Counted from the stretch's first letter, positions 4,329 to 61,198 are shown. The stretch is DNA of 64,000 nt from an uncultured Candidatus Saccharibacteria bacterium (GCA_963528575.1 CAURUS010000001.1:108807-172806), one strand, 5' to 3'. Translations and numbers: made by a program. The notes: generated from the letters alone by a model not told the origin.

Positions 4329-4771
4329 TATTGCTTATTCTCCGGAACTGATTGCTTACTGCGCAGTAAATTTAACTGCTCGACATTAACTGGCACCTTC
4401 AGTCTGCCGCTAGCGTATATTCCTTTGTCTGACAGGTTTTTTATTTTGTTATATAACTCGTCCGTCTTCTGGCTATGACCGTTCACATCTGCGGTCGTAT
4501 GATAAAAATACAAAGCAACAACACACGTGGCGTCATCAGCGTAGTGATTCTTTTTTTCTATTTCGCCAGCAATCTTCTTCAGATTATCAGGGGAAGATAT
4601 ACTACCATTAAACTTATCAATGATATCATTTCCGCACACATTATAGTAAACCAGCGCGCGCTGTTCTGGCGTTTTTACGCCGCCGTAAAGATATCCCAGT
4701 GCTGCCGCAGCGACAACAGCTGCTATAACCGCCAGGCCGCCGCCTATGATAAATCCCGTCTTCCTCTTCAT
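4328..4771 (-). CDS. Small membrane-anchored protein, unknown function
   Basis: 147-aa ORF, N-terminal TM (FIIGGGLAVIAAVVAAAALGYLY). Stop overlaps the start of the 927-aa gene (operon). Confidence 0.6.
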   Translation of the reverse strand: MKRKTGFIIGGGLAVIAAVVAAAALGYLYGGVKTPEQRALVYYNVCGNDIIDKFNGSISSPDNLKKIAGEIEKKNHYADDATCVVALYFYHTTADVNGHSQKTDELYNKIKNLSDKGIYASGRLKVPVNVEQLNLLRSKQSVPENKQ

Positions 4772-7316: not shown

Positions 7317-8947
7317 GATATACTGTCCTTTCTATCATCAATAAAAGCTGCCCATTGCCGGATCTTGCGCAAAATGGTTTTGAGCGGTAATTCGATTAAC
7401 ATATCCAACACCATCGACACAATATTAACCTGCGCGTATTTATCACTCATCCACCGGCCAGCGACTACAAACGGCAAATACAGCGTATCGCGTACAAAGG
7501 TAAAGCCGTTGCTAGCACTGCGCACAATCTCGAGATCGCGAATCAACCGGCTCAAGCGAAAGCCTAGGAAGCTCGCCGCCGAGAAAAATACAAAGAAAAT
7601 AATAATATGCACTGGTGAAAAACCAATCAACGTCAGCAGCCAAGTCGCCAGCGCGAACACCGCCAGACTCATTACGCCGTACATAATCGAAAACATCGAG
7701 CCATACGTCCGTCCCGCTAATTGCCGCCGCATCAGTACAGTATTATCGCCGCCGTAGAGCATCTGATCGACTCGTTTAATCAGCGCTTCGGTATTTGCGT
7801 ATCCCGGCACATTCAGCGTTAAGCGCAGCAACACCATGTATATCGGCGGGAAGAACAAATTGATCATCAGCACCAACCACTCAATTTGTCCGTGCGCCCA
7901 TAGGTCATACGGCACTTCAATAGCGATGCCAATCAAAAACTTAGTAATTACCAAGAAGACCACGCTGCGCATAATAGCCCGGTTAATTCGCGCCATCATG
8001 CTAGAATATTCACGGTTCACTTGCCGCTCAAATTCGTCGAGAAATGCCTCGCGCTTTTGTAACAACGCCGGGAAGTCGTCTTGCGTCTCCATCATATGGC
8101 GAATAACGCGCAGCGGCGCCCCCTGCCGATCAACCACGCGGCGCAGTTCTTCAACCGACGCGCTGCGCAGCATCTTATCAATTTTACGATTAAATTCGAC
8201 AAAAGCATCAAGGGATTCAACGCTTGTTCCGTAACGCACCAACAGCCCTGCGCGCACCGTGGCTACGTCGCTCTTCATCAGCGCCTGCTGAATAGCCACA
8301 TAAAGCGCAGCTCCATATTCATCAGCCGAAGTCGATTGCAGCGCATCCCGCGGAATTGCTGTCTCGAAATATTCATACGCAAAATCAATAAACGCATGAT
8401 CGCCTGCGTGATCAACCAATACATTCGCCGCCAATACCGACAGAGTTTCTAACAGCCATGCCGAAGAACGATCTAAATTGATTGAACGATCAGCAATCAG
8501 CTTTTCATACGCTTTATAGTGCGCTGTTGCTAGTTTTGAAATCTCTTTGATTTGGCTGCGCGACACGCTATCGTTGGGCAAATATCCCGCAAAAGTCAAT
8601 TCAACCACCAATTCTTCGCCGCTTTTGCGGACCAACGCCTCATCGCGAACAATAAACGATTGTTTGAAAAACCGCCGGATAGCATTTTGTAGCAGCAAGT
8701 GCTCCTCGGTATTTTCAGCGGCGTTGCGCAGCTGCTCGTAAGCCGCCGTCAACATGCCGCCAGCACCAACGACATTAATTTTATCAGCCTGACTAAGTAT
8801 TTGTTGCCGCTCATCAGACTGCCGCTGTGCACGTATAACACCTGCCCGCAAGTGGGCGCCAATTTGATTCAACTCTGGCATTATTCGTATATTATCGTCG
8901 ATTTTCACAGAATTAGCAAGAGTAAGCGTCATCATTTGACTACCCAA
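7313..8947 (-). CDS. Membrane protein, unknown function (soluble N-half, multi-TM C-half)
   Basis: 544-aa ORF, ATGA overlap with folD. C-terminal hydrophobic helices. Start (TTG 8947 or ATG 8935) uncertain. Confidence 0.7.
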   Translation of the reverse strand: MGSQMMTLTLANSVKIDDNIRIMPELNQIGAHLRAGVIRAQRQSDERQQILSQADKINVVGAGGMLTAAYEQLRNAAENTEEHLLLQNAIRRFFKQSFIVRDEALVRKSGEELVVELTFAGYLPNDSVSRSQIKEISKLATAHYKAYEKLIADRSINLDRSSAWLLETLSVLAANVLVDHAGDHAFIDFAYEYFETAIPRDALQSTSADEYGAALYVAIQQALMKSDVATVRAGLLVRYGTSVESLDAFVEFNRKIDKMLRSASVEELRRVVDRQGAPLRVIRHMMETQDDFPALLQKREAFLDEFERQVNREYSSMMARINRAIMRSVVFLVITKFLIGIAIEVPYDLWAHGQIEWLVLMINLFFPPIYMVLLRLTLNVPGYANTEALIKRVDQMLYGGDNTVLMRRQLAGRTYGSMFSIMYGVMSLAVFALATWLLTLIGFSPVHIIIFFVFFSAASFLGFRLSRLIRDLEIVRSASNGFTFVRDTLYLPFVVAGRWMSDKYAQVNIVSMVLDMLIELPLKTILRKIRQWAAFIDDRKDSIS

Positions 8948-9150: not shown

Positions 9151-9227
9151 TGGTACCCCGAGCAGGGTTCGAACCTGCGGCCTTGAGCTTAGAAGTCTCC
9201 TGCTCTATCCAGCTGAGCTATCGGGGC
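9151..9227 (-). tRNA. tRNA-Arg (anticodon TCT), CCA encoded
   Basis: GCCCCGA/TCGGGGT acceptor (G1.U72), D-arm GCTC-AGCTGGATA-GAGC, loop CTTCTAA, T-arm GCAGG-TTCGAAC-CCTGC. The anticodon stem has only 3 Watson-Crick pairs (GGAGA/GCTCA). Confidence 0.8.
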
Positions 9228-9328
9228 ACTCTGAAAATGTATTTAGTCGCCCGATTCGCTTAGACAAAAGCTGGATAGAGCTATGCGATTTTTGTCGCTG
9301 AGGGCTCGCCAGCTGAGCTATCGGGGCA
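9209..9328 (-). repeat. Direct repeat: 5' 20 nt of tRNA-Arg(TCT) duplicated exactly 100 nt upstream (displaced tRNA 5' fragment at 9309-9328)
   Basis: ccagctgagctatcggggca occurs at 9209-9228 (inside the tRNA) and 9309-9328. The spacer contains agctggatagagc (9269-9281), the reverse complement of D-arm 9202-9214. Confidence 0.9.
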
Positions 9329-9335
9329 AATATTT

Positions 9336-9410
9336 TGGTGCGGGTGCGGAGAATCGAACTCCGATCTCGAGTTTGGAAAACTCGCATACTAACCGCTGTA
9401 CTACACCCGC
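9336..9410 (-). tRNA. tRNA-Gly (anticodon TCC), CCA encoded
   Basis: GCGGGTG/CACCCGC acceptor, arm CGAGT-TTTCCAA-ACTCG, T-arm CGGAG-TTCGATT-CTCCG. TATAAT lies 9 nt upstream of the mature 5' end. Confidence 0.9.
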
Positions 9411-9451
9411 GCACTATACATTATATCATTACGTTAGTGTATAATAAAAGC

Positions 9452-9871
9452 ATGGGACGTTTATTTGACCGCTTCTCAACTAATAGCACACAGAGCGATG
9501 CTATGCATTCAAGCGGATTAACCAATAACAAGCCACAGATTGGTGGCAGGATTGCCAAAAATAGCTTTCAACAGCGCCAAAGCACCAACACTAACCGGCA
9601 ATATATCGGCGCATACAAGGATTCTGGAGTCAGAAACGCTTATCGCAAAGCGTGGCAAGACCAGAAAATCGCCGCAGCCAGCACCAATGGCACGCAAGCG
9701 ACTAATAGCAACCAGCCGCAAAGCTCGCGGGTCTCTGATGCAAACTCGCGAAGCGCAGGAACCACGCAAACAAATAAATCGTCGCTCATTACACCTACGA
9801 CCGAACCGACTGTTCCGTCGCGTACTTTCACCGAGCCGATCAAGCCGTCGCGCGACCCGTTCAACCGATAG
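9452..9871 (+). CDS. Hypothetical basic, Q/N/S/T-rich, probably disordered protein (139 aa)
   Basis: ATG at 9452 lies 6 nt after TATAAT (9440-9445). A terminator hairpin follows at 9890-9934. No recognisable domain. The longer 9335 ORF start overlaps tRNA-Gly. Confidence 0.45.
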   Translation: MGRLFDRFSTNSTQSDAMHSSGLTNNKPQIGGRIAKNSFQQRQSTNTNRQYIGAYKDSGVRNAYRKAWQDQKIAAASTNGTQATNSNQPQSSRVSDANSRSAGTTQTNKSSLITPTTEPTVPSRTFTEPIKPSRDPFNR

Positions 9872-9889
9872 TATTTATGATTTAGAGTC

Positions 9890-9934
9890 AAATAAAACAC
9901 CCGAGACTAATGAAGAAAACCGGGTGTTTTATTT
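9890..9934. terminator. Bidirectional intrinsic terminator (14-bp stem)
   Basis: aaataaaacacccg ... cgggtgttttattt, between the plus-strand ORF and the 3' end of tRNA-His. Confidence 0.6.
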
Positions 9935-10011
9935 GGGGCGAAAGATGGGATTCGAACCCACGGCCTCCGGAGCCACAATCCAGCGCTCTAACCAACTGAG
10001 CTACTTCCGCC
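9934..10011 (-). tRNA. tRNA-His (anticodon GTG) with encoded G-1 and C73, CCA encoded
   Basis: G(-1)+GCGGAAG/CTTTCGC acceptor, loop TTGTGGC, T-arm GTGGG-TTCGAAT-CCCAT, discriminator C. Confidence 0.9.
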
Positions 10012-10215
10012 ATAATGAATACTACGAAATGTACTAGCAGAATCTTGTCAGTTGGTTAGAGCGAGCGCTATTTTTGATGCTCACGGCTGTCCAACTGAGC
10101 TACTTCCGCCATAATGAATACTACGAAATGTACTAGCAGAATCTTGTCAGTTGGTTAGAGCGAGCGCTATTTTTGATGCTCACGGCTGTCCAACTGAGCC
10201 ACTTCCGCCACATTA
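9992..10215 (-). repeat. 99-nt tandem repeat (2 identical copies plus a diverged partial third), each starting with the 5' 20 nt of tRNA-His
   Basis: Copies at 9992-10090 and 10091-10189 are identical by eye. The third starts at 10190 (gagcCac variant). Each spacer carries tcagttggttagagcg (10048-10063, 10147-10162), the reverse complement of D-arm 9984-9999. Confidence 0.9.
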
Positions 10216-10265
10216 CCCCCTTCTCGGGGTATTTATTACTATAGCAGACAGGCGCTTGATTGTCA

Positions 10266-11789
10266 CTATTCCCAAACGGTTTCGATATCTGCACCTAGCG
10301 AGTTCAGGCGGTTAGCAATATCTTCGTAGCCGCGATTGATATTGTAAACATCGCGCAGTACCGATTTGCCAGGCGCCGCCAACATCGCTAGCAAAATCAC
10401 CACGCTCGGACGCAGTGCGGCTGGCGCTGTGATATCAGCCGGCTTCCAGCGAGTCGGGCCAGAGATATAAACCCGGTGCGGATCGACCATATTTACTTGA
10501 GCATTCATTTTAGTTAGCTCAGTAAAGTAGATTGCTCGATTTTCGTAGCTCCAATCGTGGATCAACGTGCGGCCCTTGGCTACCGTGGCGCATAATCCTA
10601 AGAACGGTAGATTATCCATGTTGATACCCGGAAACGGCAGAGCATGAATCTTATCTTTCGGAGCATGTAATTCGGATTTTTTGAGCACGATATCAACTAG
10701 ACGAGTGCAACCATTGCGCGCCATGTACTCTTCGGAAATATCGTATTGCAGACCCATACCCGCCAAAGTCGCTAGCTCTAGCTCCATAAATTCAATCGGC
10801 ACGCGCCTGATAGTAATTTCTGAACCAGTCACGACACCAGCCGCCACGAAACTCATCGCTTCAATTGGGTCTTCGCTTGGGAAGTACTCGACGTCACAGT
10901 CAATTGATTTTTTGCCAGTAATCTTGAGAACAGTGGTACCGATGCCCTCTATTTTGACACCTAGCTTTTCTAGGAAGAAACAAACATCTTGCACCATATA
11001 GTTCGGGCTAGCATTGCGAATAATAGTCGTACCATCATAAAGCGCCGCCGCCATAACGACATTCTCGGTGACCGTATCGCCGCGCTCGGTCAAAATAATT
11101 GCTCGATCAACTCGCTGCGGTTTAGCCGTGGCAATATAGTTGTCATTGGCTGCTTCGACGCTCAAACCAAACGGTGCTAGACCCGCCATATGCGGTTCAA
11201 CCGTCCGCGTGCCTAGGCTGCAACCGCCAGCAAACGGTATATTGAACGTCTCGTATTGGTGCAATAGCGGACCCAAAAACATAATGATACTGCGCGTTCG
11301 CTTAGCGGCCTCGACATCCATACTGTCGAGCTGCAAGGCTTTCGGCGGATCAATCTCGAGGTCGTGCTCGCTAATCCAGCGGCATCGCACGCCTATACTT
11401 TCCAGAACCTCAATAATTCGATTAACTTCCTCAATCCGTGCTACCCGGCGCAGCGTCGTTTTGCCTTTGTTGAGTAGACTAGCGCATAGCAATCCAACAG
11501 CAGCGTTCTTGCTAGTTTTGATTTCAATTTCACCATGCAATTCCCGGCCGCCGTTGATACGAAAGTTAGTTTTGCCCGAGCTATTAATCCGTACTATTTC
11601 GCTTGACAGTACCTCGCCGATACGCGCGATCATTTCGAGACTGATATTCTGCTTGCCGTTCTCAATTCGATTAATTGCCGACTGGCTAGTGCCAAGCTCC
11701 TCTGCCAGTTCGTTTTGAGTCATATTGCGTGCTTGGCGCGTTTCTTGGATGAGCGCGCCAATATTTTTGAGATACTTCGCCGTTTTCAT
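10266..11789 (-). CDS. murA: XRE-family HTH domain fused to UDP-N-acetylglucosamine 1-carboxyvinyltransferase (MurA)
   Basis: N-term NMTQNELAEELGTSQSAINRIENGKQNISLEMIARI (HTH_3). Then the MurA fold: KTSKNAAVGLLCASLL..., catalytic Cys loop FAGGCSLGTRTVEPH. Start set at ATG 11789, immediately downstream of a consensus promoter. Confidence 0.85.
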   Translation of the reverse strand: MKTAKYLKNIGALIQETRQARNMTQNELAEELGTSQSAINRIENGKQNISLEMIARIGEVLSSEIVRINSSGKTNFRINGGRELHGEIEIKTSKNAAVGLLCASLLNKGKTTLRRVARIEEVNRIIEVLESIGVRCRWISEHDLEIDPPKALQLDSMDVEAAKRTRSIIMFLGPLLHQYETFNIPFAGGCSLGTRTVEPHMAGLAPFGLSVEAANDNYIATAKPQRVDRAIILTERGDTVTENVVMAAALYDGTTIIRNASPNYMVQDVCFFLEKLGVKIEGIGTTVLKITGKKSIDCDVEYFPSEDPIEAMSFVAAGVVTGSEITIRRVPIEFMELELATLAGMGLQYDISEEYMARNGCTRLVDIVLKKSELHAPKDKIHALPFPGINMDNLPFLGLCATVAKGRTLIHDWSYENRAIYFTELTKMNAQVNMVDPHRVYISGPTRWKPADITAPAALRPSVVILLAMLAAPGKSVLRDVYNINRGYEDIANRLNSLGADIETVWE

Positions 11790-11795
11790 GTCACC

Positions 11796-11824
11796 ATAAT
11801 ATACCTGATATGATATATTGTCAA
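11796..11824 (-). promoter_or_regulatory. Sigma70-type promoter TTGACA-17-TATTAT, 6 nt before the ATG (leaderless)
   Basis: Minus strand TTGACA (11824-11819), 17-nt spacer, TATTAT (11801-11796), GGTGAC, ATG 11789. Confidence 0.65.
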
Positions 11825-11912
11825 GAAATTTAATCGCGACCAACTCTATTTCAAAACGTTACAGTAAATGATTATAAGTGCTAAAATATAGATAAGAAAA
11901 AGGAGGATAATC

Positions 11913-61101: not shown

Positions 61102-61121
61102 CTACAGTGCTTTACTCTTGC

Positions 61122-61198
61122 GGCACTGTAGCTCAGTTGGTTAGAGCGTAGGACTCATAAGCCTAAGGTCACTGGTTCGATCCCAGTCAGTGCTACCA
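61122..61198 (+). tRNA. tRNA with CAT anticodon (elongator Met or Ile2/lysidine; not resolvable by eye)
   Basis: GGCACTG/CAGTGCT acceptor (G1.U72), loop CTCATAA, T-arm ACTGG-TTCGATC-CCAGT. No 3-GC initiator stem. Confidence 0.85.

Follow-up and report, generated by a model that had tools for sequence, protein, structure and literature searches.

The tRNA-His locus

The stretch of DNA analysed here (the window, 64,000 nucleotides (nt) in full) comes from an oral-type Candidatus Saccharibacteria genome whose MurA protein is 100% identical to that of the related locus L001; L numbers denote the loci with which the window was compared. It carries on its minus strand a single tRNA-His(GTG) gene (9934-10010, 68.5 bits, found with ARAGORN and Rfam), preceded by tandem 99-nt units that repeat the tRNA's own 5' end. 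These units are most likely two tandem copies of a foldback leader module, placed between a promoter (or, elsewhere, an upstream tRNA) and the mature 5' end of the tRNA. Positions within tRNAs are numbered linearly from +1.

The first 20 nt of the tRNA-His gene, GGCGGAAGTAGCTCAGTTGG, stand at 10011-9992 and recur on the same strand at 10110-10091, and a third copy at 10209-10190 carries one change, A to G at 10200, which corresponds to tRNA position 9 (A9G). A search of the whole 64 kb that allowed up to 3 mismatches gave no further match, and 100 shuffles yielded none. Units 9992-10090 and 10091-10189 are 99 nt each and 100% identical, and Tandem Repeats Finder reports a period of 99 with 2.2 copies and 99% matches. 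The recurrence of the 20-mer 99 nt and 198 nt upstream (three occurrences, none expected by chance), the single change in the third copy, the identity of the two units and the common point, after ...GTTGG, at which the upstream copies part from the tRNA-His gene had all been proposed in an initial annotation of the sequence and are confirmed here. Its statement that the copies diverge from the tRNA in the D-loop holds for the break itself but not for a full loss of likeness: past G19 the copies read ACAGCC, which keeps an AGC able to close the D-stem, and this is true in all relatives. The GGCT/AGCC pairing that A9G was expected to create proved to be a rare variant, seen again only in L108, and not a feature of the family. 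That the locus holds one functional gene was borne out by ARAGORN and Rfam, which give one tRNA-His with partial 5' copies; the upstream copies receive no tRNA call from ARAGORN or from Rfam at E <= 10, and the units, unlike a tRNA (RF00005) or a tRNA pseudogene, have no cloverleaf match in either search.

The units had first been described as simple restarts of the tRNA, a description that does not hold. The spacer of each unit is 79 nt long and holds CGCTCTAACCAACTGA (10048-10063 and 10147-10162), which is the perfect reverse complement of tRNA-His nt 12-27 (16/16). Each unit is a foldback module in which a sense copy of the tRNA 5' part (S1) is followed, 5' to 3', by a conserved insert (INS), a short sense copy (S2), a perfect antisense of the D-arm (A) and a spacer (X). 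The features of the locus, in the direction of transcription, are:

10238..10266, minus strand: promoter-like site GTGACA-17-TATAGT with a TG extension (10/12 matches), between the murA stop, which it directly follows, and the first partial copy
10214..10231, minus strand: short leader hairpin UACCCCGAGAAGGGGGUA, between the promoter-like site and the first partial copy
10190..10209, minus strand: distal S1, tRNA-His G-1 to G19 with A9G at 10200
10169..10189, minus strand: distal INS, ACAGCC (D-stem closing) and GTGAGCATCAAAAAT, a conserved non-tRNA module
10147..10168, minus strand: distal S2 (AGCGCT, sense copy of tRNA nt ~23-28) abutting A (CGCTCTAACCAACTGA, 10147-10162)
10111..10146, minus strand: distal X, 36 nt, in which TTCTGCT (10135-10141) can pair with the acceptor 5' strand; contains the block GCTAGTACATTTCG
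10091..10110, minus strand: proximal S1, exact tRNA-His G-1 to G19
10012..10090, minus strand: proximal body, identical to the distal body (INS 10070-10090, S2 10064-10069, A 10048-10063, X 10012-10047)
9934..10011, minus strand: functional tRNA-His(GTG) with genome-encoded G-1 (10011), C73 and CCA, 68.5 bits
9889..9935, minus strand: 15-base-pair (bp) hairpin that overlaps the tRNA-His 3' end by 2 nt and extends downstream, with a weak ohsC-like terminator alignment

S2 and A together form a zero-loop palindrome with the junction AGCGCT/CGCT. The promoter-like site is conserved in L001-L016, and the stem of the leader hairpin UACCCCGAGAAGGGGGUA is preserved in relatives through C/U and A/G changes. 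The 15-bp hairpin at 9889..9935 is probably the terminator of the tRNA-His transcription unit and possibly a bidirectional one. A promoter-like TTGTCA-18-TATTTT is present on the opposite (plus) strand of each unit (10045-10074 and 10144-10173), where it would drive RNA antisense to the decoy 5' copy; it was rejected as a feature of the module because its -35 part is not conserved outside the oral clade. A conserved reading frame through the units was likewise rejected, as the frames differ between lineages (window versus L087).

A family of modules upstream of tRNA genes

The arrangement is not a local peculiarity of tRNA-His, as it had initially seemed, since in many Saccharibacteria members of the family precede at least seven tRNA species, and the window itself has a second site, at tRNA-Arg(TCT):

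9336..9410, minus strand: tRNA-Gly(TCC), the upstream member of a Gly-module-Arg arrangement
9228..9327, minus strand: single 100-nt module between tRNA-Gly and tRNA-Arg(TCT), covariance model 66.9 bits
9309-9327, minus strand: S1 of this module, GCCCCGATAGCTCAGCTGG, a 19/19 sense match to tRNA-Arg that begins 8 nt past the tRNA-Gly CCA
9269-9281, minus strand: antisense segment of this module, GCTCTATCCAGCT, a 13/13 antisense match to the tRNA-Arg D-arm
9151..9227, minus strand: tRNA-Arg(TCT), the gene downstream of the module

The insert of the Arg module is CGAGCCCTCAGCGACAAAAATCGC and its spacer contains AATCGGGC. TGaTATAAT at 9420-9428 is the sole promoter-like motif for the whole Gly-module-Arg unit; neither a promoter nor a terminator was found between tRNA-Gly and tRNA-Arg.

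Across the family, S1 reproduces exactly the part of the locus's own tRNA that begins at the mature 5' end (G-1 for His) and stops at G19, with an exact prefix of median 18-19 nt, and it always matches the acceptor strand of the tRNA downstream of it; the direct repeat has its left edge at the mature 5' end in 33 of the 38 lineages (non-redundant modules). The insert closes a D-arm-like hairpin and adds a second, GC-clamped and AU-rich one. S2 copies about nt 21-30 in the sense direction, and A is the exact antisense of about nt 12-30 (exact stretch of median 16 nt, range 8-20), reaching lineage-specific bases: tRNA-His nt 27-30 read GCTG, GTCG or GTCT, and each is matched. The loops at the S2/A junctions are 0-3 nt, as in the window, in L096 (AGCGTCGACGCT) and in L120 (GCGTCTgcaAGACGC), and spacers run from 24 to 65 nt. 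An acceptor/anti-acceptor helix closing the rod was rejected as a general feature, as its enrichment is weak (a 7/7 match in 13% of units versus 5.5% of non-cognate controls); it occurs in a subset of units, those of the window among them.

Relatives were drawn from two sources. The 80 related genome loci are nearly all labelled Saccharibacteria or Saccharimonadales, the exceptions being a few generic labels ("uncultured bacterium") and L017 (JBLMYW010000081.1). The latter is labelled an Acidobacteriota metagenome-assembled genome and carries an Arg-TCT module; it is probably mis-binned, since its MurA is 83% identical to this Saccharibacteria clade. A metagenome scan for a D-arm 5' strand followed on the same strand by an antisense D-arm, an arrangement impossible from two real tRNA genes, yielded 56 loci, a set picked by our own pattern and biased to one D-arm sequence. 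Many of the metagenomic loci have proteins 50-80% identical to those of Saccharibacteria loci; the taxon assignment extends to the loci other than the Asp-type and some further metagenomic ones. Genome loci and metagenome together gave 95 distinct units, before His(GTG), Arg(TCT), Arg(CCG), Lys(CTT), Asp(GTC), CAT-anticodon and Thr(TGT) tRNAs, and a partial form of the module precedes an initiator-like tRNA. In L028 (MurA 76%) and in L079 (MurA 71%) the tRNA-His gene is preceded by one unit built in the same way.

A covariance model built from 20 diverse units and run on the 64-kb window with filters off found exactly three modules, at 67-72 bits, with the real tRNAs next at no more than 17 bits; the proximal His unit is matched at 10047-10109 (72.2 bits), and no copy lies away from its cognate tRNA gene in the 64 kb. 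The units of the window have no Rfam match at E <= 10 (Rfam 15, T-box included), nor do eight related loci at E <= 0.05. A known RNA family was accordingly rejected for the units and for the long leader described below, with nothing in Rfam at gathering or permissive thresholds, and no hammerhead or other small ribozyme core was found by inspection or in Rfam. Literature searches on this architecture returned no prior description.

Several further observations concern module-bearing loci. Some loci have a conserved leader RNA, about 85-190 nt long, that is joined directly to +1/-1 of real tRNAs (His in L034, ~4560-4708; Gly in L122, two copies) or to the S1 decoy, standing upstream of modules in L083, L084, L086, L087, L089, L096, L120, L127, L129, L132 and L135. 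It consists of a long hairpin (..AAACCAAGC-loop-GCTGTTTG..) followed by TTGAGAGGAGG, a second hairpin and a tail (..AGTGAATTCCGACGAG), and has no Rfam match, permissive thresholds included. The contig L089 carries a group I intron (7704-7894, plus strand; RF00028, 73.6 bits) along with a module-bearing tRNA(CAT). The tRNA-Asp downstream of the module in L099 has a 32-nt T-loop insertion (GAGTTCG[CTTGCCTTGAACGAACGTAGAGAGTTGAAAGG]AGTCC) and a D-arm mismatch and is either a pseudogene or a gene with a small intervening sequence. The tRNA-Arg(TCT) gene itself has two alleles in the oral clade (L001 5609-5685 versus L003 5518-5594 and window 9151-9227), with compensatory anticodon-stem changes (GAGGA...GCCTA versus GGAGA...GCTCA) and a variable loop of AGGTC versus AGGCC. 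In the window, the leader of the tRNA(CAT) at 61122 contains CTACAGTGC (61102-61110, plus strand), 9 nt that complement positions 8-9 and the acceptor 5' strand of the tRNA that follows; this may be what is left of a lost module's anti-acceptor part, or a chance match.

Copy number and age of the array

Within the clade of the window (MurA 98-100%), 25 of the 45 other assemblies carry one unit at tRNA-His and 20 carry two; none has more, and near-identical strains differ in having one or two. L016 (MurA 95%) has no unit at this gene. Over the wider set the modules are patchily distributed, a site having 0, 1 or 2 units, and in most Saccharibacteria the same tRNA genes follow a plain promoter and leader. 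At least two unit sequence types, type A and type B, occur in either order, together with hybrids.

The initial annotation took the perfect identity of the window's units to imply recent duplication or ongoing conversion, and this agrees with the relatives: in 17 of the 20 two-unit genomes the pair is only ~83-95% identical, and identical or near-identical pairs occur only in the window (99% when the S1 change is included), L010 and L012. Concerted homogenisation of units within genomes was rejected, as within-genome identity is not above between-genome identity (permutation p = 0.96). The comparison with relatives thus shows that the tandem array is real and old and that only the last doubling, in the window genome, is recent.

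Sequence evolution

The copies change together with the tRNA beside them. A, S2 and the tRNA co-vary at nt 27-30, through the three states named above. Over the 65 units of the oral clade, S1 has a nucleotide diversity of 0.025 and the S2-A block, in which the core of A is invariant, one of ~0.07; the variable parts of insert and spacer have 0.21-0.36, against 0.086 at murA four-fold sites, a comparison that rests on only 18 such sites. L117 and L025, whose flanks are ~95% identical, differ by a 64-nt deletion in L025 that removes the insert and the antisense, between TTGG and TTTGG. The S1 thus orphaned in L025 has four mismatches in 16 nt, and that of L117 is perfect; in both, S1 has its own tRNA's state at acceptor nt 5, where the change is compensated in the tRNA 3' strand.

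The insert is conserved as a module in its own right, reading (N)AGC-C followed by the GC-clamped AU-rich hairpin, and comes in several types. Cores such as CAGCCTTGAGCGA are common to His, CAT and Arg modules of different lineages, and one genome (L121) has three different insert types at three tRNAs. Derivation of the insert from a decayed anticodon, variable or T region of its own tRNA was rejected, since sense and antisense local alignments gave a mean z of ~0 and an ungapped 10-mer test did no better than shuffles. Because both tests stayed at shuffle level, two suggestive matches, AGCCGTGAGC with AGGCCGTGGG and GCCTTGAGC with the reverse complement of tRNA-Arg, were treated as chance.

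Transcription and predicted folding

A strong sigma-70-type promoter lies within 40 nt of 91% of module-free tRNA-His and tRNA-Arg genes and in 10% of the spacers adjoining the real tRNA at module-bearing loci (shuffles 6%). An element-borne promoter in the spacer was rejected, strong promoters being no commoner there than in shuffles. Because the spacers are promoter-poor and neither a promoter nor a terminator separates tRNA-Gly from the Arg module, the modules are most probably part of the pre-tRNA leader; their co-transcription with the tRNA is likewise suggested by the positions of the promoter (upstream of S1) and the terminator (after the tRNA).

The folding energies that follow are predictions from a model that leaves tRNA tertiary structure and modification outside. 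A unit alone is predicted to form a rod-like hairpin with S1 paired to A (-30.6 kcal/mol, z = -3.6 for the window), a pairing found in 34 of the 38 lineages. In folds of the growing chain, each A is predicted to pair first with the preceding S1; after the real D-arm has been added, the last A is paired with the real tRNA in the minimum-energy fold. The two states compare as follows:

Full window precursor: trapped (minimum-energy) fold -116.2 kcal/mol, modular fold -100.0 kcal/mol (predicted)
A-X-tRNA without S1: trapped fold -52.7 kcal/mol, cloverleaf -27.9 kcal/mol (predicted)

A direct-path estimate puts the refolding barrier at ~18 kcal/mol. Predicted folding is thus bistable, with A pairing first to the decoy and the real tRNA thermodynamically preferred, and a regulatory role is therefore kept among the readings.

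Origin and maintenance of the modules

These data have led us to a tentative model, to which we would give somewhat less than an even chance, in which the modules are co-transcribed foldback leaders made and kept by template switching, with copy number changing by recombination between S1 repeats. The module would be transcribed inside the pre-tRNA leader from the promoter upstream of S1; the emerging A would pair with S1 and the short sense copy to give the rod-like hairpin, which would hold A off the real tRNA; and cleavage by RNase P at the genuine 5' end would, as expected from general tRNA biology, discard the whole leader. An origin by template switching during replication is suggested by the sense-antisense-sense order, which is its signature, by junctions with little or no loop, and by the joint change of copies and tRNA. 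Quasipalindrome correction and short-tract conversion, for which the selected tRNA would serve as master copy, would then keep the arms perfect. Recombination between the 20-nt S1 repeats would shift copy number among 0, 1 and 2, and would account both for these states and for the identical pair in the window, where a type-A unit has recently been duplicated.

That perfect hairpins can arise and persist through template switching is documented (PMC8794818; PMC7202029; PMC8604942), and the modules resemble the products of this process, the tandem inversion duplications and quasipalindromes, in having three copies (S1/S2, A and the real tRNA) of which the middle one is inverted, in palindromic junctions at microhomology with loops of 0-3 nt, and in arms that are perfectly complementary and change together. 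Unlike such products, they hold a conserved insert of 20-45 nt that is shared by unrelated tRNA loci and not derivable from the local template, their left boundary is the 5' end of a mature RNA, and they recur specifically at tRNA genes. Work on quasipalindrome correction and tandem inversion duplications is reportedly due to Ripley and to the Lovett and Roth laboratories.

Several points weigh against template switching as the whole account. The main feature that it leaves unexplained is the conserved insert, which is shared across tRNA species and lineages and yet shows no detectable derivation from the local tRNA; such sharing is not expected from template switching alone and implies transfer between loci by a route that the model does not explain. 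A neutral by-product would be expected to decay, and S1 and A are instead constrained, being less diverse (0.025 and 0.07) than the 18 murA four-fold sites (0.086). In 37 of the 38 lineages A pairs with the real D-arm in the minimum-energy fold, and the trapped fold averages 15.8 kcal/mol below the modular fold, so that A is predicted to be costly and the persistence of a potentially harmful perfect antisense is left without a reason. Quasipalindrome correction is itself inferred from sequence, and the promoter rules of this phylum were assumed to be sigma-70-like.

An unlikely alternative is a cis-acting RNA switch on tRNA maturation, in which A would be an antisense lock on the D-arm and acceptor 5' strand and S1, with S2, an anti-antisense; the balance of a productive S1:A state and a trapped A:tRNA state, the latter unprocessed or degraded, would tune the output of a single-copy tRNA gene. 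The mutually exclusive pairing of three segments is predicted in 37 of 38 lineages, with kinetics favouring S1:A and thermodynamics A:tRNA, the trapped fold lies 25 kcal/mol below the cloverleaf when S1 is left out, and the refolding barrier of ~18 kcal/mol is in keeping with this reading. A is exact and tracks lineage-specific tRNA bases, S1 and A are more constrained than synonymous sites, and S1 decays in L025, where A is deleted. The module is, however, missing at the same tRNA genes in most Saccharibacteria, near-identical strains have one or two units, no effector is suggested and no Rfam family matches, and the energies come from a model that omits tRNA tertiary structure and modification. 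The likeness to trp-type attenuators, riboswitch expression platforms and T-box leaders lies in the mutually exclusive pairings (1:2 versus 2:3, predicted in 37 of 38 lineages), of which the upstream one is predicted to form first. Unlike in these, the regulated product would be the tRNA's own fold rather than a terminator or ribosome-binding site, and the module has no ligand-binding or tRNA-sensing domain, no Rfam match and a patchy distribution.

A bolder form of this idea, which we regard as improbable, is that the modules make up a "pro-tRNA" leader of antisense locks on tRNA folding, with the decoy S1 normally disarming A during transcription. Removing, occupying or outrunning the decoy would, on the folding model, divert the precursor to a dead-end duplex.

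Less probable again is that the modules are miniature integrated cassettes or att scars, left by site-specific or hairpin-dependent recombination at D-loop G19/U20 that rebuilds the 5' part of the gene: a mirror image of the 3' duplication made by integrases, with tandem units from successive integrations. Displaced tRNA-gene fragments were reportedly described by Williams in 2002 for the att duplications of tyrosine integrases, and we know of no integrase that duplicates the 5' part. A displaced fragment beside a regenerated gene is an established principle, that used by Islander for fragments at the ends of genomic islands and prophages (PMC4383910). The loci share with att duplications an intact tRNA gene beside an exact partial copy (tRNA-His, tRNA-Arg), a repeat that ends at a defined gene-internal point and at the mature end, tandem arrays and presence/absence polymorphism. 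In 33 of 38 lineages the direct repeat covers precisely the stretch between the mature 5' end and G19, in the manner of an att identity block, and the insert opens, as expected of an attP core, with an imperfect D-stem 3' half (A[G/C]AGC); most tandem pairs combine differing types, presence is patchy, insert cores are common to several tRNA species, and the variable segments are more diverse than synonymous sites.

The module repeats the 5' part up to G19 in the D-loop, and att scars the 3' part; the repeats are 79 nt apart, with no integrase, open reading frame (ORF) or cargo between them, and the target is also copied in antisense. The loci share no conserved linked gene, S1 and A had nothing larger between them at ~140 loci, and type A/B hybrids show exchange inside units and not solely at the repeats. 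A phage or plasmid origin of an attP was rejected, since IMG/VR, scanned for both arrangements of the pattern, and INPHARED phages and PLSDB plasmids, searched with blastn, gave 0 matches. The initial judgement that this is not a usual integrase scar therefore stands. Taken together, bistability and constraint favour the switch, and repeat boundaries, mixed-type arrays and shared inserts favour the cassette, while the patchiness, and the fact that no recombinase or extrachromosomal counterpart was seen, weigh against both.

That the units are a one-off tandem duplication accident at this tRNA-His, with no wider meaning, is very unlikely: the window's units are identical, as are pairs in L010 and L012, but the unit is old and widespread, being present in L028 and L079 (MurA 71-76%), before other tRNAs and at the second site in the window, so that the idea is refuted as a complete explanation and applies to the last doubling only. 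An assembly artefact has a negligible probability: short-read assemblers can create or collapse perfect tandem repeats and no assembly has more than two units, but one or two units in 45 independent clade assemblies from different studies and assemblers, mostly non-identical where two (impossible by mis-assembly), show that the array is no such artefact, one of the outcomes that the initial annotation had named as refuting it.

Two further systems were compared. Like REP/BIME sequences and MITEs (Correia, RUP), the module is ~100 nt long, non-coding and an imperfect palindrome that folds to a hairpin, occupies intergenic DNA that is probably transcribed and differs in copy number from strain to strain; unlike them, its arms copy the local target tRNA rather than element-specific terminal repeats, and it has no dispersed copies, the three matches in the window all being tRNA-linked. 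In the split tRNA genes of Nanoarchaeum equitans, 5' and 3' halves are joined through complementary flanks, and the module likewise has a stand-alone 5' portion followed by sequence complementary to another part of the tRNA; unlike there, the tRNA-His gene is contiguous (68.5 bits), the host is bacterial, and neither a bulge-helix-bulge motif nor a separate 3' half is present. The module lacks at least one defining feature of every family compared other than leader switches, an assignment that the predicted pairings neither support nor contradict. It is a repeat family for which we found no prior description, nearest in kind to partial-tRNA repeats and template-switch foldbacks, with a real chance of being more than that.

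Neighbouring genes

The gene upstream of the tRNA-His unit encodes MurA (10266-11843, minus strand), in which the EPSP_synthase fold (residues 97-513) follows an N-terminal Cro/C1-type HTH_3 domain (residues 32-79); this extension is common to related Saccharibacteria loci. The 520-nt gap between tRNA-Gly and the probable tRNA-His terminator holds, on the plus strand, an ORF of 139 amino acids rich in Q, N, S and T (9452-9871). Its ATG lies 6 nt past the motif TGTATAAT, so that the mRNA may be leaderless; it contains an imperfect direct repeat, ACCGAACCGACTGTTCCGTCGCG and ACCGAGCCGATCAAGCCGTCGCG (9800-9852), and has no Pfam match.

Implications

Saccharibacteria have tiny genomes and single-copy tRNA genes, and a perfect complement within the precursor of an essential tRNA bears on how that tRNA is made. 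If the modules are tolerated foldbacks, they would be a clear natural example of template switching building and keeping perfect long hairpins beside a selected master copy, and a new kind of partial-tRNA repeat, one that programs for finding islands or annotating tRNAs will misread. If they are switches, they would represent a new way of regulating tRNA maturation, and if mobile cassettes, a new class of element directed at tRNA genes, whose 5' end it rebuilds. Should the pro-tRNA reading be true, single-copy tRNA genes would carry a built-in, tRNA-specific control or quality timer on their own maturation.

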